From: Kofleriaceae bacterium
GTDB taxonomy: Bacteria > Myxococcota_A > Polyangia > Haliangiales > Haliangiaceae
Reading direction: 5' to 3'
Assembly (NCBI GenBank): GCA_046597055.1
Contig: JBKJLC010000004.1
Span: 1-55,717, forward strand
DNA: 55,717 nucleotides
Shown here: positions 24,718 to 34,915 of the stretch, in pieces
Numbering within the stretch: the stretch's first letter is position 1
How the letters are laid out: each line of letters begins with the position of its first letter
Made by a program: the position numbers and the translations under genes
The notes under the pieces: model-generated
The model's input: the letters and a program-made list of their open reading frames with translations, nothing else
Told to the model about the DNA's origin: nothing
Database searches by the model: none

Positions 24718-25650
<933 letters not shown>

Positions 25651-25659
25651 GCCACGCGC

Positions 25660-25790
25660 TCGAGAGCGCGAAGTCGAAGGGCAGACTTCCAGGGTTGTGG
25701 CCCCCGCGCTTCGACGGGCTGGCCCTTCGACTCCGGGCTCGCAACGAGCCCTTCGCTCAGGGACACCGGAAAGATGTGCGGGATCCTGGG
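25660..25790 (-). repeat. Dispersed copy of the REP-like element
   Basis: Reverse complement CAGGATCCCGCACATCTTTCCGGTGTCCCTGAGCGAAGGGCTCGTTGCGAGCCCGGAGTCGAAGGGCCAGCCCGTCGAAG aligns with 928-1009 and 363-415. Lies between convergent genes. Confidence 0.85.
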
Positions 25791-25791
25791 C

Positions 25792-26570
25792 TCACCGCGG
25801 GCCCCGAGCGCGTACAGCCAGTGATCGTTCGACCCGAGCAGCACGCGCTCGCCCGCGATCACCGGCGCGGTGTCGTTGTCGGCGCCGGCCGAGGTCGCGC
25901 CGCGGTCGACCGTGCGGCCTCCGACGAACCCGCGCACCTGGCCGTCGCGGGTCGCCACCACGATCGCCGCGCCACCCGCGGCCGGCGCGCCGTAGCAGCG
26001 ATCGCCGAGCGCGATCCGCGCCTGCTCGCGGCCGGTGGCCGGCGCGAGCGCGACCAGCGCCGCGCCGTTGCACAGCCACACCACGCCGTCGACCGCGGTC
26101 GCCGCGCCGAACCCGCCCTCGGCCACCGCGCGCCGCCACCGCACCGCCAGGTCGCGGGCGCCGAGCCCGACCAGCTCGCCGCCCTGCCGTCGGCGCACCC
26201 CGACCACGATCACGTCGCCGGCGGCCGCCGGGGTCGCCCACACGTCGCCGCCGCCCAGCGCGGCCCGGGCGCGCTCGGCGCCGGTGGCCGCATCGAGCAG
26301 CACGACCACGCCGGTCCGGGTCGCGATCAGCACGCCGCCGGCCAGCACCAGCGGCGACGCGTCGATGCGCGCGCCGAGCTCCGCGCGCCACGCGATCCGC
26401 CAGGCCGGGGTCGGCGCGGCCGGACGATCGCCGCCGTGCGCGGCGTCACCCCGGAACATCGGCCACGCATGCCCCGGGCGATCGCCGGCAATGGGCGCAC
26501 CACCGACCGCCGCACCGCGGCACGCCGCCGCCACGAGGACCACGGTGGCGAGGACTCCGACAGGTCGCAT
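25792..26570 (-). CDS. PQQ-like beta-propeller lipoprotein (true stop probably at 25792 after a 1-nt frameshift)
   Basis: VAAAC lipobox, WPMFRGDAAHGG, repeated xxSP/TP blades, GSNDHWLYAL. As sequenced it reads through the repeat to 25575. Confidence 0.75.
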
Positions 26571-26659
26571 CTGCACCAGCATCACTGTAGGTGCGATCGA
26601 CGCCACACGGCGCGTCGGCGGTTGAACCCGGAGGGTCGGCAACGGTACATTGGCACCTC

Positions 26660-27307
26660 GTGCGCCGCGCCTGCCTCACTGCCGGCGCGCTCGGGGTTGG
26701 TCTCGCGGGGGCGAGCGGCTGCGAGCGCGAGATGGCCCCTGCGATCTGCCCGGACGTCGCGGTCGGCGAGCTCGTGATCACGGAGCTGCGCGGCCCCCAG
26801 GCCGGGGCCGCGCTCGACACCGGCGGCCAGTGGATCGAGCTGCACAACGGGTCAGGCGCCGACCTCGACCTGCTCGGGCTGCAGCTGCGGCCCCGCACGC
26901 TCGGCGGCGACCGCCAGCCGCGCATCATCGTGCGCACCTCGCTGGTGGTCGCGGCCGGCGATTACGTCGTCCTCGGCGGCGTGGACGACCTCGAGGCACC
27001 CCCGGCGACCCTCGACTACAACTGGTATCCGGACTTCACGTCGGACGATCGCGACAGCGACAGCCGGCTCGACGCGAGCGATCTGTTCGACGTGGGCGCG
27101 CTCGACGTCGAGGCCTGCGGGGTCCGCATCGACCGCATCGTCTATCCCGATCTGCCCGGCAGCGGCACCTACGCGTTCGGCCCGGCCCCCGACGCCACCG
27201 GCAACGACACCACCACCGCGTGGTGCACCGACGTCACCGACGACGCCGATGCCACCACCGTCGGGCTGCCCGGGACGCCGGGCGCCGCCAACCGTCCATG
27301 CCCATGA
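26660..27307 (+). CDS. Lamin-tail-domain lipoprotein
   Basis: ASGC lipobox. GELVITEL...QWIELHNGSGADLDLLG...GDYVVLG...GTPGAANRPC. Stop overlaps the next ATG (ATGA). Confidence 0.85.
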   Translation: MRRACLTAGALGVGLAGASGCEREMAPAICPDVAVGELVITELRGPQAGAALDTGGQWIELHNGSGADLDLLGLQLRPRTLGGDRQPRIIVRTSLVVAAGDYVVLGGVDDLEAPPATLDYNWYPDFTSDDRDSDSRLDASDLFDVGALDVEACGVRIDRIVYPDLPGSGTYAFGPAPDATGNDTTTAWCTDVTDDADATTVGLPGTPGAANRPCP

Positions 27308-28413
27308 CTTCGCTCGGTCGCCTGGTCCTGACCGCGATGGCGACGCTCGCGCTGGTCGCGTCGTGCGGCCCGCGCTCGTCGTCGCGCTACCAGCGCCAGG
27401 CCGCGCAGGCGTCGCTCAAGAAGCTGGGCACGCCGGGCCTGGTGATCGGCGAGTTCAACCTCAGCCGGATCGTCGACGGCGACACCATCCGGGTCGACGG
27501 GCTCGACAGCTCGCTGCGCCTGGTCAGCCTCGACACCGAGGAGACCTTCAAGAACGACGACGATCGGCGCCAGTCCGACGCCGACTTCGCCGGCTACCTC
27601 GTGCGCAAGCGCGGCGAGGGCAAGCGCCCGACCAAGGCGGCGACGCCCATGGGCGATGCCGCCAAGGAGTACGCCAAGCAGTTCTTCAAGGGCGTGACCC
27701 GGGTCCGGCTCGAGCGCGACGATCCCCGCGAGATCCGCGACCGCTACGACCGCTACCTCGCCTACGTGTTCGTCGAGAAGCACGGCCAGTGGGTCAACTT
27801 CAACGTCGAGTGCGTGCGCGCCGGCATGTCGCCGTACTTCACCAAGTACGGCCACTCGCGCCGCTTCCACGACGAGCTGATCGCCGCCGCCGCCGAGGCG
27901 CGCGCCGCCCGCCGCGGCATCTGGGACCCGGCCCTGCCCCACTACCCCGACTACGACGAGCGCCAGGCCTGGTGGGACGCGCGCGGCGCGTTCATCGCCA
28001 GGTACCAGCGCCAGATCGACGCCGATCCCTCGTTCATCGTGCTCACCCACTGGGACGCGCTCCGCCGGATCGAGGAGCGGGTCGGCCAGGAGGTGTCGAT
28101 CCTCGCGACCGTCGGCGACATCCGCCTCGGCGACCGCGGGCCGACCCGGGTCGCGCTGTCGCGCAAGATGTTCGGCGACTTCCCGCTGGTGTTCTTCGAC
28201 AAGGACGTCTTCGCCAGCTCCGGCATCGGCCAGTGGAAGAGCGAGTTCGTGGTGGCCAAGGGTGTGATCACCGTCTATCAGAACAAGCACACCAAGAAGA
28301 AGCAGTTCCAGATCGTCGTCGACCGCCCTGGCCAGATCGTGCTGTCGCCGGTCCCCGGGCTCGCGCCGCCCGACGCCGAGCTCCCCGCCGCCGACGGCGC
28401 CGCCGCGCCGTAA
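27304..28413 (+). CDS. Thermonuclease (SNase-family) lipoprotein with extra C-terminal beta-rich (OB-fold-like) domain
   Basis: VASC lipobox. IVDGDT, LRLVSLDTEE, DRYDRYLAYV, ARAARRGIW retain the SNase catalytic residues. Confidence 0.9.
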   Translation: MTSLGRLVLTAMATLALVASCGPRSSSRYQRQAAQASLKKLGTPGLVIGEFNLSRIVDGDTIRVDGLDSSLRLVSLDTEETFKNDDDRRQSDADFAGYLVRKRGEGKRPTKAATPMGDAAKEYAKQFFKGVTRVRLERDDPREIRDRYDRYLAYVFVEKHGQWVNFNVECVRAGMSPYFTKYGHSRRFHDELIAAAAEARAARRGIWDPALPHYPDYDERQAWWDARGAFIARYQRQIDADPSFIVLTHWDALRRIEERVGQEVSILATVGDIRLGDRGPTRVALSRKMFGDFPLVFFDKDVFASSGIGQWKSEFVVAKGVITVYQNKHTKKKQFQIVVDRPGQIVLSPVPGLAPPDAELPAADGAAAP

Positions 28414-28425
28414 GAGGACGTTGCC

Positions 28426-30165
28426 ATGCCCAGACTCGATCCCCTGCTCCTCGCGGCCGCCAGCGCCGCGCTCGGTCTGGGCGCCGCCGCCTGCGGACCG
28501 GGCGACGACGACACCACCTGCGCCGGCATCTTGCCCGGCGAGCTGGTGGTCACCGAGGTGCTCGCCGACTTCGGCGCGCCCACCGGCACCAGCGGCGCCG
28601 ACGAAGGTCGCGAGTGGTTCGAGGTCTACAACGCGTCGTCGCGCCCGCTCGAGCTCGAGGGCGTGGTCCTCGAGCACGGCCGCCCCGACGCGACCCCCGA
28701 CGCGATCAAGCGCCACCCGCTCCGCGCGGCGACGGTCGAGCCCGGCGGCTACCTGGTGCTCGGCAACGTGCTCCCCGACCTGGCCCCGGCCCACGTCGAC
28801 TACGGCTACGCTGGCGCGCTCGGCGATCTGTACAACACGGGCAGCGGCCGGCTCGGGCTGCGCTGCGGGACCACCCTGGTCGACGAGGCGAACTACCAGG
28901 AGCCGTCGGCCGGGCAGTCGCGCGCGCTCGACGGCGGCGCCGCCCCCGACTACCTGGCCAACGATCAGGCGACCAGCTGGTGCGAGACCGACGAGGTCGC
29001 GTCGTACGAGTACGAGCCCGGCAACTACGGCACGCCCGGCGGGGCCAACCCCGACTGCATGGTCGTCATCCCCGGCACCTGCGACGATGGCGGCACGATG
29101 CGGCCGTCGGTGCCGCCACAGATCGGCGACCTGGTCATCACCGAGGTGATGCCGAGCCCGGGCCTGGTCTCCGACACGATCGGCGAGTGGTTCGAGGTGC
29201 TGGCCACCCGCGACGTCGACCTCAACGGCGTGGGCCTGGCCCGCGGCACCGGCACGCCCAGCGTGATCACCGCGGCGTCGTGCCAGCGCGTGACCGCCGG
29301 CAGCTACCTGGTGTTCGCCAAGAACGCCGACATGACGATGAACGGCGGCGTGGCCGGGGTCGACGGCACCTTCACCTTCGACCTGGTCGCGGGCAGCGCG
29401 GCCAGCCCGGGCAACGTCCGTCTGCTGGTCGGCGCCACCGAGCTCGATACGATCTCGTGGACCAGCTCGCGCAACCTGCGCGCGCTGCAGCTCGACGCCG
29501 GCCTGACCACGCCGGCCGACAACGACCTGTCGACCAACCTGTGCGACGCGACCACCGCCTACAACCCGATGGACTTCGGCACCCCGGGCGCCGCCAACCT
29601 CGCGTGCGGCGTGGTGACCACCGGCATGTGTACCGACCCCGGCACCGGCACGCTGCGCCCGATCGTCAAGCCGACCACCGGCCAGCTCGTCATCAACGAG
29701 TGGCTGCCCAACACCGAGGGCGCGATCGTCACCGATGCCACCGGCGAGTGGATCGAGCTGCGCGCGACCGCCGCGGTCGACCTCAACGGCCTGCAGGCCG
29801 GGGTCGCGAGCCTGGGGGCGATGCCGCTCATCCCGGCCGGCGGCGACTGCGTGCGGCTCGCGGCCGGAGGCCTGGCGGTGCTCGCGCGCACGACCATGGG
29901 CAATGGTCTGCCGGCGGCGGTGACCCCGGCGGCCCTGTTCGGCTTCACCCTGCCCAACACCGGCGCCCGCACGCTGCTCGTCGGCGTCGACGGCGCGATG
30001 ATCGACAGCAAGAGCTGGACGGGCCTCGACACCGTCGCCGACAAGGGCCGCGCGTACCAGCTCGATAGCGACGGCACCCAGTGCGTGGTCCCGGCCGGTG
30101 CGAACGAGTACACGCCGTCGAACTTCGGCACGCCGGGCACCGCCAATACGCCCGAGTGTCCGTAG
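28426..30165 (+). CDS. Lipoprotein with three lamin-tail domains
   Basis: AAAC lipobox. Three repeats of G(E/D/Q)LV(V/I)(T/N)E...EW(F/I)E...(Y/F)GTPG.AN..C. Confidence 0.88.
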   Translation: MPRLDPLLLAAASAALGLGAAACGPGDDDTTCAGILPGELVVTEVLADFGAPTGTSGADEGREWFEVYNASSRPLELEGVVLEHGRPDATPDAIKRHPLRAATVEPGGYLVLGNVLPDLAPAHVDYGYAGALGDLYNTGSGRLGLRCGTTLVDEANYQEPSAGQSRALDGGAAPDYLANDQATSWCETDEVASYEYEPGNYGTPGGANPDCMVVIPGTCDDGGTMRPSVPPQIGDLVITEVMPSPGLVSDTIGEWFEVLATRDVDLNGVGLARGTGTPSVITAASCQRVTAGSYLVFAKNADMTMNGGVAGVDGTFTFDLVAGSAASPGNVRLLVGATELDTISWTSSRNLRALQLDAGLTTPADNDLSTNLCDATTAYNPMDFGTPGAANLACGVVTTGMCTDPGTGTLRPIVKPTTGQLVINEWLPNTEGAIVTDATGEWIELRATAAVDLNGLQAGVASLGAMPLIPAGGDCVRLAAGGLAVLARTTMGNGLPAAVTPAALFGFTLPNTGARTLLVGVDGAMIDSKSWTGLDTVADKGRAYQLDSDGTQCVVPAGANEYTPSNFGTPGTANTPECP

Positions 30166-30653
30166 TGCCCCGGGTGTCCGGGGTCCGGACAGCCCTACTG
30201 GCCATGCTCGCGATCGGCGCCGGCTGCGGTGACCCCGGCGCCAGCTGCGGGCCCGAGGCCGGCGTGGTCGCGCGCGTGATCGATGGCGACACCATCGTGC
30301 TCGAGTCGGGCGAGACCATCCGCTACCTCATGGTCGACACGCCGGAGACCACCAGCGAGGTCGAGTGTTTCGGCGCCGACGCGCGGTCGTTCAACACCGA
30401 CGCGGTCGGCGGCCAGGCCATCAGCCTGCGCTACGACGTCGAGTGCACCGACCGGTTCGATCGGCTGCTCGCGTACGTCTCGGTCGACGGCCAGGAGATC
30501 AACCGGCTGCTGGTCGAGCGCGGCTATGGCTGCGTGCTGCGCATCGCGCCCAACGGCGCCGCCCGCGCCGACGAGTTCGAGATGCTCGAGTTCCGCGCCC
30601 GCGCCGAGGGCCGTGGGCTGTGGTCGGCGTGCCCGGAGCCGCGGCCGTGCTGA
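30165..30653 (+). CDS. Second thermonuclease (SNase-family) lipoprotein (start uncertain)
   Basis: GAGC lipobox. VIDGDT, IRYLMVDTPET, DRFDRLLAYV, ARAEGRGLW. Confidence 0.9.
   Translation: MPRVSGVRTALLAMLAIGAGCGDPGASCGPEAGVVARVIDGDTIVLESGETIRYLMVDTPETTSEVECFGADARSFNTDAVGGQAISLRYDVECTDRFDRLLAYVSVDGQEINRLLVERGYGCVLRIAPNGAARADEFEMLEFRARAEGRGLWSACPEPRPC
30175..30191. promoter_or_regulatory. Perfect TGTCCGG-N3-CCGGACA palindrome
   Basis: TGTCCGGggtCCGGACA, same arms as the sites at 39242, 44091 and 45058. Confidence 0.5.
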
Positions 30654-32860
30654 CGCCCCGCCGCACCGCGCTGGCGGCCAGCCTGGTGCTGGCGACCGCC
30701 GCGCCCGCCCTGGCCGCGCCCTACGAGGCGTTCATCGACGTCGAGACCGAGGACGATCTCGAGGACCTGCGCGCGACCGGGCAGATCGAGACCGAGACCT
30801 ACGACGCGCTGTACGCGCTGCTCGACCGCGGCGTCGAGCTCGGCACCGCCAGCCGCGCCGAGCTCTACTCCCTGCCCAACCTGACCTACGCCGACGTCGA
30901 CGCCATCCTCGCCTACCGCAAGCTCCAGGGCTTCATCACCGACCCGGCCGAGCTGGTCGCGGTCGGCGCGCTGACCGAGGCCAAGCTGCTGGCGATCGCG
31001 GCGTTCCTGATCGTGCGGCCGCGCGGCGACGGGCGCTACCAGCCGCACGGCGCGATCCGCGCATCCACCCAGGCGACGACCTCGGACGACACCGTACCGC
31101 CGGTCGGGCTGCGCGCGCGGGTCCGGGCGGGACGCACGCTGACCGCCGGCCTGGCCGCCACCCTCGATCGCCGGCAGCTCGGGACCATCGTGTGGGATCC
31201 CAACCGCGGCGCGCTCATCGGCGATGGGCCCGGCATCACGCCGACCGTCCCCAAGCTGTACGCGCGCTACCACACCGACCAGCTCGACGTGATCGCCGGC
31301 ACCTATCGCATCGGCTTCGGGCAGCGCCTCACCTTCGACACCGCGCTCGACTACACGCCCAACGGCATCTACGCCGACGACCAGCTCAGCCGCAGCTACG
31401 ACCTGAGCCGCGACTGTATCGAGTCGATCGGCGAGCTGCCGGCGGGGCCGTGCACCGGCGACCGCCGCTATCAGTACATCACGCCCGACTACGCCTCCAG
31501 CGACGGCCTGCGCGGCGTCGCCGCCGGCCTCGCGCACGTCCCGCTCGGCGAGGGGCACCTGCAGGCCTACGGCTGGGCCAGCTACCAGACCCGCGGCATC
31601 TACCAGTACGAGATCGCCGCGCTCGGCACCTGCGTCGACCCGCGCAACGACGGCGCCGAGGCGTGCGGGGCGCCCGACGTGTTCGTCCGCCCCGACAGCG
31701 ACGCGCTGACGCCGACCTCCGAGTTCGCGTACCAGACGCTGCCCGACATGTTCGCCGAGTCGCTGGTCGGCGGCAACCTGACCTACTTCGCCGGACGCCG
31801 CGACTACCTCGGCGTCACCGGCTACGGCGCCACCATCGACTGGCTGCCGGCGACGCCGGCGGGCGTCGCGCTCGACTTCCAGGAGTGGTCCCGCTACCCG
31901 ACCGGCGGCCAGTTCGGCGCGGTCGGCGCCAACCTCGGGTTCGGTCGCGGCCTGGTCGACGTGTTCGCCGAGGTCACCCACAGCTTCGACAAGCTCGCGG
32001 CGAGCGGCGGCTCGGTCGATGGCGGCGGCGGGCCGGCCGCGATCGTGCGGGCGACCCACACCCGCAACAAGCGCGAGCTCGAGCTGGCGCTGCGCTACTA
32101 CGACCCCGACTTCGTGAACCCGTACGCGGGCGCGATCGCCGCGTCCGACGAGGTCGAGGGCCAGCGCGCCCGCGGCGAGCACGGCGCCCGGCTCCGCTAC
32201 ACCGCGGTCCACGGCCAGGTCAACCTGCGCACCGGGCTCGACCTGTGGCGCAGCCTGGCCGAGGTGCCGCTGGCGGTCGGCCGCGACTGGACCTACGTGC
32301 CGCGCGGCGACGGGTACCTGCGCACCGACGTCGCGCCCAGCAAGCAGCTGCGCTGGGGCCTGTGGCTGCGCTACCAGGACAAGGGCCTCAACCGCAGCGG
32401 CGACATGCCCTGCTACGAGGTCGCGTTCGACGACGGCGAGATCGGCGAGCCGGTGACCTGCTACGGCAACAAGCTCACCAGCACCGGTCGGCTGCGGCTG
32501 AACGCCCGCCGCGCCAGCCTGACCCTGCAGGCGCAACACGAGCTGCTCGACGACAGCCGCACCGAGCTGGCCGGCAAGAAGCGCCACGACGTGTCGGCGC
32601 TCGCGGTCGCGACCTGGAAGCCGACCGACCGCGCCCGCCTCACCGGCCGGGTCCGCTACCTCAGCGAGGACATCTCCGACAACACGTACCTCGAGCAGAC
32701 GCTGCGCACCTACCTCGAGGCGGTCGTGCGCCTGCGCGCGAAGGACCGGCTGCGCGTGCGCGTCGACGGCGTGATCTACCTCGACGACCGCCCCAGCACG
32801 CAGGCGCGGTCGCCGTCCCCCGAGCTGTCGCTCGGCGCCGACTACGAAGCGAAGTTCTGA
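30647..32860 (+). CDS. Secreted ComEA-type helix-hairpin-helix protein fused to a probable outer-membrane beta-barrel
   Basis: Signal peptide (ALA-A). VELGTASRAELYSLPNLTYADVDAILAYRKLQGFITDPAEL (HhH). Alternating aromatic beta-strands; ends LGADYEAKF (beta-signal). Confidence 0.8.
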   Translation: MLTPRRTALAASLVLATAAPALAAPYEAFIDVETEDDLEDLRATGQIETETYDALYALLDRGVELGTASRAELYSLPNLTYADVDAILAYRKLQGFITDPAELVAVGALTEAKLLAIAAFLIVRPRGDGRYQPHGAIRASTQATTSDDTVPPVGLRARVRAGRTLTAGLAATLDRRQLGTIVWDPNRGALIGDGPGITPTVPKLYARYHTDQLDVIAGTYRIGFGQRLTFDTALDYTPNGIYADDQLSRSYDLSRDCIESIGELPAGPCTGDRRYQYITPDYASSDGLRGVAAGLAHVPLGEGHLQAYGWASYQTRGIYQYEIAALGTCVDPRNDGAEACGAPDVFVRPDSDALTPTSEFAYQTLPDMFAESLVGGNLTYFAGRRDYLGVTGYGATIDWLPATPAGVALDFQEWSRYPTGGQFGAVGANLGFGRGLVDVFAEVTHSFDKLAASGGSVDGGGGPAAIVRATHTRNKRELELALRYYDPDFVNPYAGAIAASDEVEGQRARGEHGARLRYTAVHGQVNLRTGLDLWRSLAEVPLAVGRDWTYVPRGDGYLRTDVAPSKQLRWGLWLRYQDKGLNRSGDMPCYEVAFDDGEIGEPVTCYGNKLTSTGRLRLNARRASLTLQAQHELLDDSRTELAGKKRHDVSALAVATWKPTDRARLTGRVRYLSEDISDNTYLEQTLRTYLEAVVRLRAKDRLRVRVDGVIYLDDRPSTQARSPSPELSLGADYEAKF

Positions 32861-33344: not shown

Positions 33345-33911
33345 TCACGGCGCGAGGTAGCCGGGCGGCACCGCGTCGACCAGCCAGACCCGGTTGGGCG
33401 TGACGTAGAAGACGTGGCCGTCGGCGTGCATCCGCGCGGCGTCGACCACCAGCACGATCGGCCGGCCGTGGCGGCCGCCGACCTGACGCGCGGTGGCGAT
33501 CGCGGCCGACAGGTGGACGTGGTGGCGATCGCGACGCTCGAGGCCGGCGGCGCGGATCGAGGCGAGGTTGCGCTCGGCGGTGCCGTGGTAGAGCACCGCC
33601 GGCGGCGGCGCCGGCGGGTAGCCGAGCTCGACCTCGACCGAGTGGCCCTGGCTGGCGCGGATGCGCAGGCCGTCATCGGAGATCGCGAACCGCTGCTTGG
33701 TGTTATCGGCGACGACCCGGTCGAGATCGGTGCGCGCGAGCGCGGGGCCGATCGCCGCCAGCCCGCGCAGCAGCACGTCGATCGCGACCCAGCCCTGGGC
33801 ATCGAGCGTCACCCCGGCCGACTCGGGCGCGTGGCGCAGCACGTAGCTGAGTCGCTTGCTGAGTGTCCGGTCGTCGGACAGCTCACGGGGGCGGGCTCGG
33901 TCGGCAGCCAT
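33345..33911 (-). CDS. kptA: RNA 2'-phosphotransferase (Tpt1/KptA)
   Basis: LSYVLRHAP, KQRF, IRASQGHS, LYHGT, RHHVHLS, VWLVDAVPP. Confidence 0.95.
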   Translation of the reverse strand: MAADRARPRELSDDRTLSKRLSYVLRHAPESAGVTLDAQGWVAIDVLLRGLAAIGPALARTDLDRVVADNTKQRFAISDDGLRIRASQGHSVEVELGYPPAPPPAVLYHGTAERNLASIRAAGLERRDRHHVHLSAAIATARQVGGRHGRPIVLVVDAARMHADGHVFYVTPNRVWLVDAVPPGYLAP

Positions 33912-34021
33912 CGGGCCCGCATCGTACGAGATCCCGGCGCCGATCCCCGCGGCGGCCGTCCGATCGAGGTGGCCGGGCTGCGTTGGCTGGACGCGCTCGA
34001 CACCTGCCATACTCGGCGACC

Positions 34022-34915
34022 ATGCAACACCTCTTGCTCGCCACCGACTTCTCGGCACCGTCGGACCTGGCGCTGACGCGCGCGCTCGCGGTGGCGCGCA
34101 GTCACGGGGCGAAGCTGACGATCGCGTTCATCGATCCCCCCAGCGACGTCGCCGCGCTCGGCCCCGACGCCGAGCTGGCCAGCCGCGAGCTGGCCAGCCT
34201 GCAGCGCGAGATGGAGGCCTACGAGGACGAGCAGCTCGCCGAGCGGGTCGCGCGCGCGGCGGCCGCCGGCGTCGCCGCCACCGCGGTGCATCGCCGCGGC
34301 AAGCCCGAGGAGGCGCTGGCCGCGCTGGCGACCGAGCTCGACATCGATCTGATCGTGTGCGGCACCCACGGCCGCACCGGGGTGCGCCGCTTCTTCCTCG
34401 GCAGCGTCGCCGAGCGCCTGGCCCGCCTGGCCGCGCGCCCGGTGCTGGTCGCGCGCGGCGCCGCCGGCGACGATGGCACGTATCACAAGGTGCTGGTGGC
34501 GACCGACTTCGCGCCGACCGGCGAGCGGGCGCTGGCGCTCGCGCTCGCGCTCGCCCCCACCGCCACGATCGAGGTCGTCAACGCGTGGCAGTACCCGGTC
34601 GGCTCGTGGGGCCTGTCGGCCCTCGGCGAACGCACCGGCGCGATGACCGCGCTGCGCGAGGCGCTGACCGGCCCGGCCGCCGAGCAGGGCGCACGGCTCG
34701 AGGAGCGCCTCCGCGCCGCCGGCCGCGACGCCCGCTTTCGCCTGGTGCATGGCAGCGCCGCCGACGTGGTGACCGAGCTCGCCGCCGCCGAGGGCTTCGA
34801 TCTGGTCGCGGTCGGGACCCACGGTCACCGCGGCCTGCGCCGCATCGTCATCGGCAGCACCGCCGAGGCGATCATCCGCCACGCGCCGTGCTCGGTGATG
34901 GTCGCCCACGGCTGA
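34022..34915 (+). CDS. Universal stress protein (tandem USP)
   Basis: LLATDFS, GTHGRTG...LGSVAE, second LVATDFA...GTHG...IGSTAE. Confidence 0.95.
   Translation: MQHLLLATDFSAPSDLALTRALAVARSHGAKLTIAFIDPPSDVAALGPDAELASRELASLQREMEAYEDEQLAERVARAAAAGVAATAVHRRGKPEEALAALATELDIDLIVCGTHGRTGVRRFFLGSVAERLARLAARPVLVARGAAGDDGTYHKVLVATDFAPTGERALALALALAPTATIEVVNAWQYPVGSWGLSALGERTGAMTALREALTGPAAEQGARLEERLRAAGRDARFRLVHGSAADVVTELAAAEGFDLVAVGTHGHRGLRRIVIGSTAEAIIRHAPCSVMVAHG

Follow-up and report, generated by a model that had tools for sequence, protein, structure and literature searches.

Across the Myxococcota, the gene for a large β-barrel protein (E) keeps lamin-tail domain (LTD) and nuclease-fold genes as near-constant neighbors while the fold of the nuclease is swapped, an association that is new here. 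In the window, the 55,717-nt stretch of a Kofleriaceae genome that we analyzed, this gene closes a five-gene cluster that also encodes two LTD proteins (A and C) and two proteins of the staphylococcal nuclease (SNase) family (B and D), all four predicted to be lipoproteins (Table 1). With moderate confidence, we read the cluster as an outer-membrane nucleic-acid utilization module that is analogous, not homologous, to ddbABCDEF of Bacteroides and is possibly gated by an acidic plug.

Table 1. Genes of the cluster, with coordinates in the window and the basis of each assignment.
Gene	Coordinates	Strand	Product	Basis
A	26660-27307	+	Predicted single-LTD lipoprotein, 215 aa, lipobox Cys21	PF00932, lipobox heuristic
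B	27304-28413	+	Predicted lipoprotein nuclease, 369 aa: SNase plus C-terminal OB fold	Pfam, model, fold search
C	28426-30165	+	Predicted lipoprotein, 579 aa, three Cys-bounded LTD repeats (~180 aa each)	Pfam, repeat analysis
D	30165-30653	+	Predicted small single-domain SNase lipoprotein, 162 aa; four conserved cysteines	Pfam, alignment
E	30647-32860	+	Predicted outer-membrane protein, 737 aa: signal peptide, acidic helical N-domain, ~24-strand β-barrel	Pfam, model

All five open reading frames were confirmed as co-oriented, coupled genes, in agreement with the initial annotation. A and B overlap by 4 nt (ATGA), B and C are separated by 12 nt, and the C/D and D/E junctions overlap by 1 and 7 nt, respectively; GC3 in the called frames is 0.92–0.98. 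The starts of A and E carry an uncertainty of a few codons (E is 746 aa in its database record). A promoter scan returned no sigma-70 sites, and its terminator-like matches numbered 2 against 1.2 expected. The region is also spanned, at ~99% identity or more, by tiled contigs of two further runs from the same study, making misassembly unlikely. By tblastn, each of A–E is single-copy in the genome, and the only two SNase genes in its 8.4 Mb both lie inside the cluster, which argues that the grouping is not due to chance. Export signals had been noted on all five products, and we recover them as predicted features: lipobox-like cysteines in A–D, scored by our own heuristic, and a hydrophobic leader with an Ala-x-Ala motif read from the sequence of E. 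The same heuristic finds such cysteines in 62/64 homologs of A, 75/80 of B, 87/88 of C, and 83/86 of D, compared with 11/1265 control windows.

The Pfam SNase family (PF00565, gathering score 21) matches B at 53.1 bits and D at 62.7 bits, and both proteins fall under the NucI and EcnA equivalog cutoffs. The SNase residues of B (D58, G59, D60, T61, R72, D77, E80, and R150) are all kept in 82/82 homologs. Those of D are D40, G41, D42, T43, R53, D58, E61, and R100, and the catalytic residues are kept in 104/104 homologs save for D58, which is Asn in 15; this is the equivalent of D40 in staphylococcal nuclease, whose catalytic and Ca2+ positions we take to be D19, D21, R35, D40, E43, and R87. D aligns to the S. 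aureus nuclease with an E-value of 4e-13, and in a fold search the SNase domain of the B model (pLDDT 91.9) matches 1sta with a Z of 16.2 and an rmsd of 2.2 over 133 aligned residues. Thus the SNase motifs first noted in both nucleases prove essentially invariant among homologs, and, on these residues, B and D look like active nucleases. Like members of the staphylococcal nuclease family, they have the family fold and every position for catalysis and Ca2+ binding; unlike them, they are predicted lipoproteins with conserved cysteines, and B has an added OB fold. This C-terminal domain (residues ~236–350) is of the nucleic-acid-binding type, with OB matches at Z 9–10.3 in a fold search of the model (1ltl, rmsd 2.5 over 93 aligned residues). 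A sequence search of the PDB with the domain gave nothing; the OB fold is visible by fold search only and was absent from the initial annotation.

Among the LTD proteins, C exceeds the PF00932 cutoff of 34.3 bits with a score of 54.4. A scores 22.8 bits, under that cutoff (E-value 1.2e-4), and is homologous to repeat 1 of C at 31% identity. GTPG closes each of the three C repeats, at positions 202, 385, and 568, and homologs of C have about 2–6 repeats, judged from length. Both proteins are acidic, with 14 K/R versus 33 D/E in A and 27 versus 67 in C.

The model of E (pLDDT 94.8, pTM 0.92) places an all-helical N-domain, a degenerate (HhH)2, at mature residues 1–98, followed by a barrel at residues 105–714 that ends on its last strand with a terminal Phe. 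We counted 24 long strands manually from the DSSP string of the model, a number we take as ~24. HHH_3 was the only Pfam match at E-values up to 0.1, and no close solved relative of the barrel was found: a PDB sequence search matched the HhH region only, and fold matches were to generic barrels. E shares a large monomeric barrel with fimbrial ushers (FimD, PapC) and TonB-dependent receptors, and its ~24 strands match the usher; it differs from both in being about 10% identical and in having a helical N-domain where those proteins have a β plug. Fold searching aligned E residues 110–714 to FimD 138–658, and comparison with usher 3ohn gave a VIA Z of 15.8 and an rmsd of 5.0 over 375 aligned residues. 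Ushers are marked by a sequence signature, β-sandwich end domains, and chaperone and pilin genes; no Pfam or NCBIfam match to the signature was found in E, and no chaperone or pilin gene lies among the annotated neighbors. TonB-dependent transporters pair a 22-strand barrel with an N-terminal β-rich plug (PF07715), and assignment of E to this type (DdbC/SusC) was rejected given its ~24 strands, all-helical N-domain, and lack of a plug match in Pfam. Slam exporters (Type XI secretion) combine a TPR domain with a 14-strand barrel and were likewise set aside, as E has no TPR match and ~24 strands. The predicted lumen face in the E family, assigned solely by strand alternation, has a median net charge of +10; its strongly conserved charges are evenly split, with 11 basic and 12 acidic.

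The N-domain of E shares its (HhH)2 core with ComEA (PF12836; 8dss; PMC9747964): HHH_3 matches at 29.2 bits, just above the cutoff of 27, and profile A1 matches the ComEA structure 8dss in a PDB sequence search (E-value 7e-14). It departs from ComEA in being acidic, fused to a barrel, and without the DNA-contact lysine. Where ComEA has GIGPAK and GIGEK hairpins, E has NLTYAD and ALTEA, and G-h-G hairpins survive in only 2/117 family sequences for the first HhH and 1/116 for the second. The lysine described as required for DNA binding (K166 in Geobacillus, K164 in B. subtilis; PMC9747964) corresponds to Asp60 of E (own numbering, offset 59), a position occupied across the family by D (44%), E (23%), or Q (13%). 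The net charge of the family N-domain has a median of -13 and is negative in 118/118 sequences. ComEA-style capture of DNA by this domain, as put forward in the initial annotation, is not supported in view of the loss of both hairpins, the Lys-to-Asp change, and the acidity, a degeneracy that the annotation had not recorded. Judged on its residues, the HhH domain of E is not a ComEA-type DNA receptor, and nothing in E itself points to DNA binding.

As the module first proposed would lead one to expect, the genes are co-conserved in relatives. Of 60 informative GTDB loci in Kofleriaceae, Nannocystaceae, and Sandaracinaceae records, 53 show the order A-B-C-D-E; these loci are not mutually independent and were drawn from the best 80 of 248 matches, with at least 5.5 kb upstream required. 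Cultured Nannocystis exedens DSM 71 and Enhygromyxa salina carry the cluster. Among 41 related genomes, E was matched in 30 and B in 28, and 10 of the 11 without E are also without B. In word-based homolog searches, the listed matches that carried names were all of the myxobacteria type. A barrel-length match was obtained in 74 of 301 sampled genomes of the phylum, about three quarters giving none. Looking up to 6 kb from the barrel gene in 60 loci from 58 genomes, we found an LTD gene in 55, a gene for a nuclease fold in 53 (SNase in 32, PLD in 17, MBL in 11), and neither in 5. These nucleases represent three unrelated folds: SNase, NucT-like PLD, and ComEC-like MBL. The PLD partners are single-HKD proteins whose nearest models, NucT or DrmC, score under the cutoff, and several have lipobox-like leaders; for the MBL partners, the ComEC nuclease domain was the nearest model in 7/7 tested. 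On a barrel tree built with FastTree, partner type changes 15 times, where the least possible is 8, indicating a functional theme that outlived gene replacement. A nucleic-acid role is backed by this repeated substitution of one nuclease fold for another.

The same neighborhoods weigh on a reading that involves no uptake. Here, the nucleases would remove eDNA from the matrix or from lysed prey in aid of gliding and predation, or degrade incoming foreign DNA, and E would do something unrelated in the envelope. In its favor, biofilms are shaped by secreted LTD/OB nucleases (PMC6085458), E stands without a detected nuclease in the 5/60 phylum loci above and in most Bacteroidota-like loci, and B and D score on the PADLOC 'SNc+LTD' model. 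However, that match spans the SNase domain only, and the constancy of the LTD and nuclease neighbors through several replacements would be left unexplained; we regard this reading as very unlikely. An anti-phage system was dropped as a candidate because the SNase domain accounts for the sole PADLOC match. Farther out, PQQ propeller, FHA, and lipase neighbors in the window are not conserved beside the cluster in relatives, and a candidate sixth gene (universal stress protein cluster, co-oriented in 33 loci) was discarded as local synteny. No TonB, motor, or nucleoside-transporter genes occur in 25 annotated flank families; adenosine deaminase (7 loci), thymidine kinase (6), and RecA (10) are confined to limited locus sets.

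A motif scan following Atlas leads yielded a Bacteroidota-like family homologous to E over its full length (hhalign probability 99.96, E-value 8e-39, 561 columns), with the same degenerate acidic HhH. Its surroundings differ from those of E: a PorV-like barrel precedes the homolog in 43/80 loci, comEC adjoins it directly or one gene downstream in 7/80, and LTD or SNase genes are mostly missing nearby (LTD 1, SNase 0). One distant homolog is flanked by a DUF5689/OB protein and a 5′-nucleotidase. A tblastn search of distant barrel P0256 against plasmids gave no match, and no characterization of the PorV-like plus HhH-barrel pair was found in the literature. PorV-like pairing is a feature of the T9SS translocon, and it fits a protein-handling role too. 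E could be an exporter or display platform that flips neighboring lipoproteins to the surface, with DNA digested outside, nucleosides taken up by general routes, and the acidic HhH-like domain serving as gate or chaperone. The predicted lipidation of A–D, the lipoprotein-like PLD partners, the missing DNA-contact residues, and the top Foldseek matches of E, which are 24-strand ushers and hence protein exporters (E-value about 1e-10), would all suit such a role. Yet the usher match is generic (8–11% identity, TMq ≤0.38), with porins and TonB receptors tying in a second fold search; the comEC and 5′-nucleotidase neighbors are not export cargo; and the genome has eight other LTD loci against one barrel gene. 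Moreover, distant LTD partners carry a MYXO-CTERM-like tail in 10/16 cases tested (7 at or above a cutoff); MYXO-CTERM proteins are surface-sorted, by a predicted T2SS route (PMC11980579), yet these partners still sit beside the barrel. On balance, we think export unlikely.

Natural transformation by pilus-independent DNA entry, with the SNases trimming DNA and E handing it to periplasmic ComEA/ComEC for recombination, appears more doubtful still. The comEC neighbors of distant homologs, a tandem-HhH ComEA above the TIGR00426 cutoff that precedes E in locus L066, and recA ~6 kb away in 10 loci are in its favor. Canonical ComEA, ComEC, and DprA are encoded elsewhere in the genome, but so is PilQ (above cutoff), implying that a canonical route exists and weakening this reading; the separate ComEA-like gene keeps both GhG hairpins. 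No competence gene lies inside the cluster, and staphylococcal nuclease is an established non-specific enzyme, so two SNases would shred the DNA. Such entry would find support in the relation of the ddb loci to genes for transformation in Riemerella (PMC12478041). However, the essential HhH proteins of Riemerella (RA0C_RS02645, HhH at 236–301; PMC8459023) and P. gingivalis (PGN_0421, ComEA domain at 94–165; PMC11532111) are probably other proteins, judged by domain position, as the E-family HhH lies at about 60–120.

The initial annotation knew of no named system with this composition. None was found, and a literature search, thin in coverage of subscription papers, returned no description of the cluster or the barrel family, but a named functional analog exists: ddbABCDEF, which is required for DNA depletion (PMC12478041). 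Together with Riemerella RA0C_RS04915/04920, it resembles the cluster in grouping, at one locus, a barrel of the outer membrane, a putative surface protein encoded next to it, several nucleases that are secreted or lipoproteins, and OB-like DNA-binding folds (PMC12478041, PMC8459023). DdbC carries a TonB-dependent annotation and DdbD belongs to DUF5689 (PMC12478041), whereas the cluster has LTD-repeat partners and SNase nucleases, with no DUF5689 or TonB-receptor/plug match to A–E in Pfam; compared in this way, the layouts are analogous and apparently not homologous. ExeM of Shewanella and Xds of Vibrio offer a second parallel, an exported, membrane-associated set of LTD, OB, and nuclease domains (PMC6085458, PMC6746945). 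There, one protein chain carries the whole set, catalysis falls to an EEP domain, a barrel is absent, and the LTD is dispensable for cutting; in the cluster, the set is split over four predicted lipoproteins with SNase catalysis, the LTD and OB domains are encoded by different genes, and no EEP match to A–E was found in Pfam.

In the utilization module that we favor, the cluster products would form a physical complex at the outer membrane. Lipid-anchored A and C would act as a surface scaffold, and B and D as lipid-anchored, Ca2+-dependent SNases cutting prey, biofilm, or soil DNA/RNA, with the OB fold of B holding the substrate. The barrel of E may provide the route by which fragments enter the periplasm. 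Its HhH-derived domain would have no grip on DNA and could serve as an acidic plug, most likely set against the net-basic lumen and displaceable by a polyanion. We count the negative N-domain against a lumen of positive median charge, as well as the distant comEC and 5′-nucleotidase neighbors, the MYXO-CTERM-like tails of distant LTD partners, the domain set of ExeM and Xds, and the layout of ddbABCDEF, toward utilization, the purpose of which would most likely be nutrition (P, N, nucleosides). Counted against it are the lost DNA-contact residues of the HhH, the balance among strongly conserved lumen charges, the gene families of the flanks, the surroundings of the Bacteroidota-like homologs, the five phylum loci with neither LTD nor nuclease gene, and the many sampled genomes with no barrel-length match. 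The scavenging module first proposed is supported in part, by co-conservation, intact nuclease motifs, and nuclease swaps, and loses HhH-mediated DNA capture. Tentatively, and with more doubt than belief, E might represent a new channel class common to Myxococcota and Bacteroidota: a 24-strand barrel whose ComEA-derived, acidic DNA-mimic gate is displaced by incoming nucleic acid, allowing pilus- and TonB-free import. Myxobacteria would pair such a channel with interchangeable nucleases to feed, and some Bacteroidota would pair it with ComEC for transformation.

Pilus-free passage of nucleic acids across the Gram-negative outer membrane is poorly known, and the cluster is a candidate for it. 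In the papers found, no machinery is assigned to the recovery of prey DNA and RNA by predatory myxobacteria; the cluster is a testable candidate, is single-copy, and occurs in cultured strains. Should lipoprotein export prove to be the role of E, then E would be a surface-lipoprotein translocon of a new kind. As the most constant neighbor of the barrel, the bacterial lamin-tail domain gains a defined context.

The five coupled, co-oriented genes (A–E) that the initial annotation proposed as a surface operon are borne out by their coordinates, Pfam domains, and GC3 (0.92-0.98). They encode lamin-tail domain (LTD, PF00932), staphylococcal nuclease (SNase, PF00565), and helix-hairpin-helix (HhH) barrel proteins; an NCBIfam search of A–E returned nothing over cut-off. 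In tblastn each gene occurs once in the genome, whose only SNases are B and D. Three soil metagenome runs of a single study contain most of the window, one of them being possibly its source, and contigs from two of the three tile the region. Named close homologs of E belong to Kofleriaceae or Myxococcales, which makes a Haliangiales myxobacterium the most likely host. The PQQ/BamB-like β-propeller gene divergent from the cluster is absent beside it in the loci examined; its 3' end enters a short inverted repeat, probably a multi-copy repeat element, at which contig depth in the soil runs is very high. Downstream, Tpt1/KptA also follows E in L031 and L032, two loci of relatives, and the universal stress protein gene is syntenic in many Kofleriaceae-type loci.

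Coordinates of the cluster genes and of other features in the window and in other loci (L numbers)
Feature	Source	Positions	Strand	Annotation
Gene A	window	26660-27307	+	LTD, Pfam score under cut-off
Gene B	window	27304-28413	+	SNase (Pfam)
Gene C	window	28426-30165	+	LTD, Pfam score over cut-off
Gene D	window	30165-30653	+	SNase (Pfam)
Gene E	window	30647-32860	+	HHH_3, Pfam score barely over cut-off
Propeller gene	window	25575-26588	-	PQQ/BamB-like
Inverted repeat	window	25664-25740		
Tpt1/KptA	window	33345-34058	-	RNA 2'-phosphotransferase
Stress protein gene	window	about 34030-34912	+	universal stress protein
Lipoprotein gene	L032	7495-9252		585 aa, repeat-rich
Lipoprotein gene	L049	814-2580		585 aa, repeat-rich
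Tandem paralogs	L031	12499-15173		three, ~290 aa
Adenosine deaminase	L185	2270-3352		
Thymidine kinase	L189	2328-2915		
recA	L134	10522-11553		
HhH barrel locus	L220	752-10010		

Lipobox-like cysteines, called with a custom heuristic that was positive in 11 of 1,265 control windows, occur in 62/64 homologs of A, 75/80 of B, 87/88 of C, and 83/86 of D. This shows A–D to be predicted lipid-anchored proteins, which as far as the lipobox goes may face either side of the outer membrane. Homolog alignments confirmed the claim that B and D keep the SNase catalytic residues, these positions being invariant in 82/82 B and 104/104 D sequences, bar D58 (N in 15 of the latter). The predicted model of B (pLDDT 91.9) has a C-terminal OB fold; in a fold search it matched, at Z 9-10.3, the OB domains of MCM, RecG, RPA, and tRNA synthetases.

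The expected co-conservation likewise held in a gene-neighborhood survey. Of 248 GTDB loci, we examined the best 80. Sixty of them extend at least 5.5 kb upstream, and 53 of these keep the order A-B-C-D-E; the others comprise two with A–D inverted, one B–E, one D–E, and three E alone. These 80 loci, carried by Nannocystis exedens DSM 71, N. bainbridge, N. pusilla, and Enhygromyxa salina among others, are mutual kin and partly overlap the 41 genomes of a related-genome survey. There, E matched in 30 and B in 28, with E found in 23/24 members of the family, 6/9 from the rest of the order, and 0/7 other class members; a few of the matches are fragments at contig edges, and in one genome scored as a miss 8,000 bases lay outside the comparison. 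The module is retained in a strongly reduced genome of the same taxonomic order (G028; 1.6 Mb, rated 98% complete), where D, E, and B are present (L026).

Individual loci vary. An extra SNase gene lies between D and E on the opposite strand in six (L133, L136, L153, L156, L159, L162). In Nannocystis pusilla Na p29 and genome G024 (L187, L043/L137) the E gene is broken over two frames, as is D in genome G021 (L042/L155), which may reflect either sequencing error or decay. Some relatives carry a related repeat-rich lipoprotein gene upstream of D on the opposite strand, and one locus has tandem paralogs on one strand that are unrelated to the cluster. Genes for adenosine deaminase, thymidine kinase, and RecA lie near the cluster in limited sets of loci (7, 6, and 10, respectively).

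When 301 genomes from across the phylum were sampled, 74 gave a barrel-length match (E-value below 1e-60, hand-counted), the remaining matches being to HhH only. We surveyed partners in 60 loci from 58 of these 74, excluding the window's own genome, three already sampled, and twelve mostly contig-edge or redundant. At ≤6 kb from the barrel, 55/60 loci have an LTD gene (three called manually: L071 by Pfam, L063 and L064 by repeat pattern and BLAST clustering), 53/60 a nuclease-fold gene, and 5/60 neither. Nuclease type varies by lineage (SNase 32, PLD 17, MBL 11). PLD partners comprise 15 small single-HKD proteins directly upstream of the barrel and 2 LTD-PLD fusions, and the 11 MBL partners are closest to the ComEC nuclease domain; because NucT, DrmC, and ComEC model scores were all under cut-off, these are putative nucleases. 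One locus (L066) has a true tandem ComEA upstream of the barrel, and genome G285 encodes three barrel paralogs (L077, L078, L094) that fall into two clades of the barrel tree; SNase is the partner of two of them and PLD of the third. On a FastTree phylogeny of 69 barrels and 4 outgroups, 15 changes are needed to account for the partner labels; the B-containing group to which the window belongs forms a single branch (23 rows, support 100). Since unrelated nucleases have been recruited repeatedly beside the barrel, a nucleic-acid role of the module is very probable.

The predicted model of E (pLDDT 94.8, pTM 0.92) combines a helical N-domain with about 24 long strands (manual count). Its fold matches are generic large barrels at ~10% identity, with ushers top in Foldseek. 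Many VIA alignments with plugged receptors begin with the first residue of the model, which hints weakly that the N-domain may sit within or beneath the pore. The likening of the HhH to a ComEA-type DNA binder did not survive alignment with Geobacillus ComEA (8dss), in which GIGPAK becomes NLTYAD and GIGEK becomes ALTEA. Loss of ComEA K166 abolishes DNA binding (available text of PMC9747964); its equivalent in E is Asp60 (our numbering), and 80% of the family have D, E, or Q there. GhG is retained in 2/117 sequences at the first hairpin and 1/116 at the second. The N-domain is acidic (median net charge -13, negative in 118/118); the predicted lumen face has a median charge of +10 by crude assignment, with strongly conserved lumen charges balanced, 11 to 12. 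A separate ComEA-like gene of the same genome retains both hairpins and the lysines. With the GhG hairpins and DNA-contact lysine lost and the N-domain acidic, E does not, judging from its sequence, combine a barrel with a ComEA ratchet of its own.

Atlas leads for E were clusters of 630-632 aa, commonest in Bacteroidota. A metagenome motif scan yielded 120 stretches, with the motif in frame in 119 and flanks in 80. Most full-length distant homologs, assigned to phylum from GC content, neighbors, and the Atlas rather than names, are ~690 aa and, outside the motif, match a profile built from E's barrel alone; an alignment of 27 of them matched the E family across 561 columns (probability 99.96). 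Query loci included, a PorV-like gene is nearby in 43/80 loci and comEC in 7/80; SNase was found in 0/80 flanked loci and LTD in 1. One locus (L220) encodes, in one direction, a Big_5/OB/DUF5689/FlgD_ig protein, a PorV-like barrel, an HhH barrel, an unassigned protein, and a 5'-nucleotidase, possibly linking the HhH barrel family with ddb-type parts.

The PorV-like partner and the usher-like size of E would fit lipoprotein export or display by E, a reading we consider unlikely. It sits less well with the comEC neighbors and with the LTD partners, which carry a MYXO-CTERM-like tail in 10/16 distant-lineage cases examined, MYXO-CTERM being a surface-sorting tag (available text of PMC11980579). 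Transformation, to which the comEC link points, is less likely still: PilQ, ComEA, ComEC, and DprA are encoded elsewhere in the same genome, and long DNA would not survive two nucleases that cut non-specifically. In Riemerella and P. gingivalis, transformation requires HhH proteins (PMC8459023, PMC11532111, in part) that appear, by domain positions rather than sequence, to be other than the E family.

The layout of A–E resembles the Bacteroides DNA-utilization locus ddbABCDEF, but the cluster falls outside that system as described in the available text of PMC12478041, having neither a TonB-dependent DdbC nor DUF5689. It shares the LTD, OB, and nuclease set of the extracellular nucleases ExeM and Xds, yet distributes it over separate genes and uses another catalytic fold (PMC6085458, PMC6746945, in part). 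DNA-degradation loci of marine Izemoplasmatales also include a nuclease with LTD (PMC8289736, in part). A search of main texts found no paper describing the A–E cluster or the E barrel family, and no solved or described family member, in keeping with the initial annotation, to which no named system of this composition was known.

We lean, at somewhat better than even, toward A–E being a nucleic-acid utilization module in which LTD proteins would form a scaffold at the cell surface, lipoprotein nucleases would cleave nucleic acid, and fragments would enter through E, its acidic N-domain serving as a displaceable plug. That E is a channel for DNA with a DNA-mimicking plug as its gate is doubtful, and nuclease action without uptake is very unlikely. 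Real, conserved, and uncharacterized, the A–E cluster is a variant of DNA-utilization loci built on a barrel family without a known described member.
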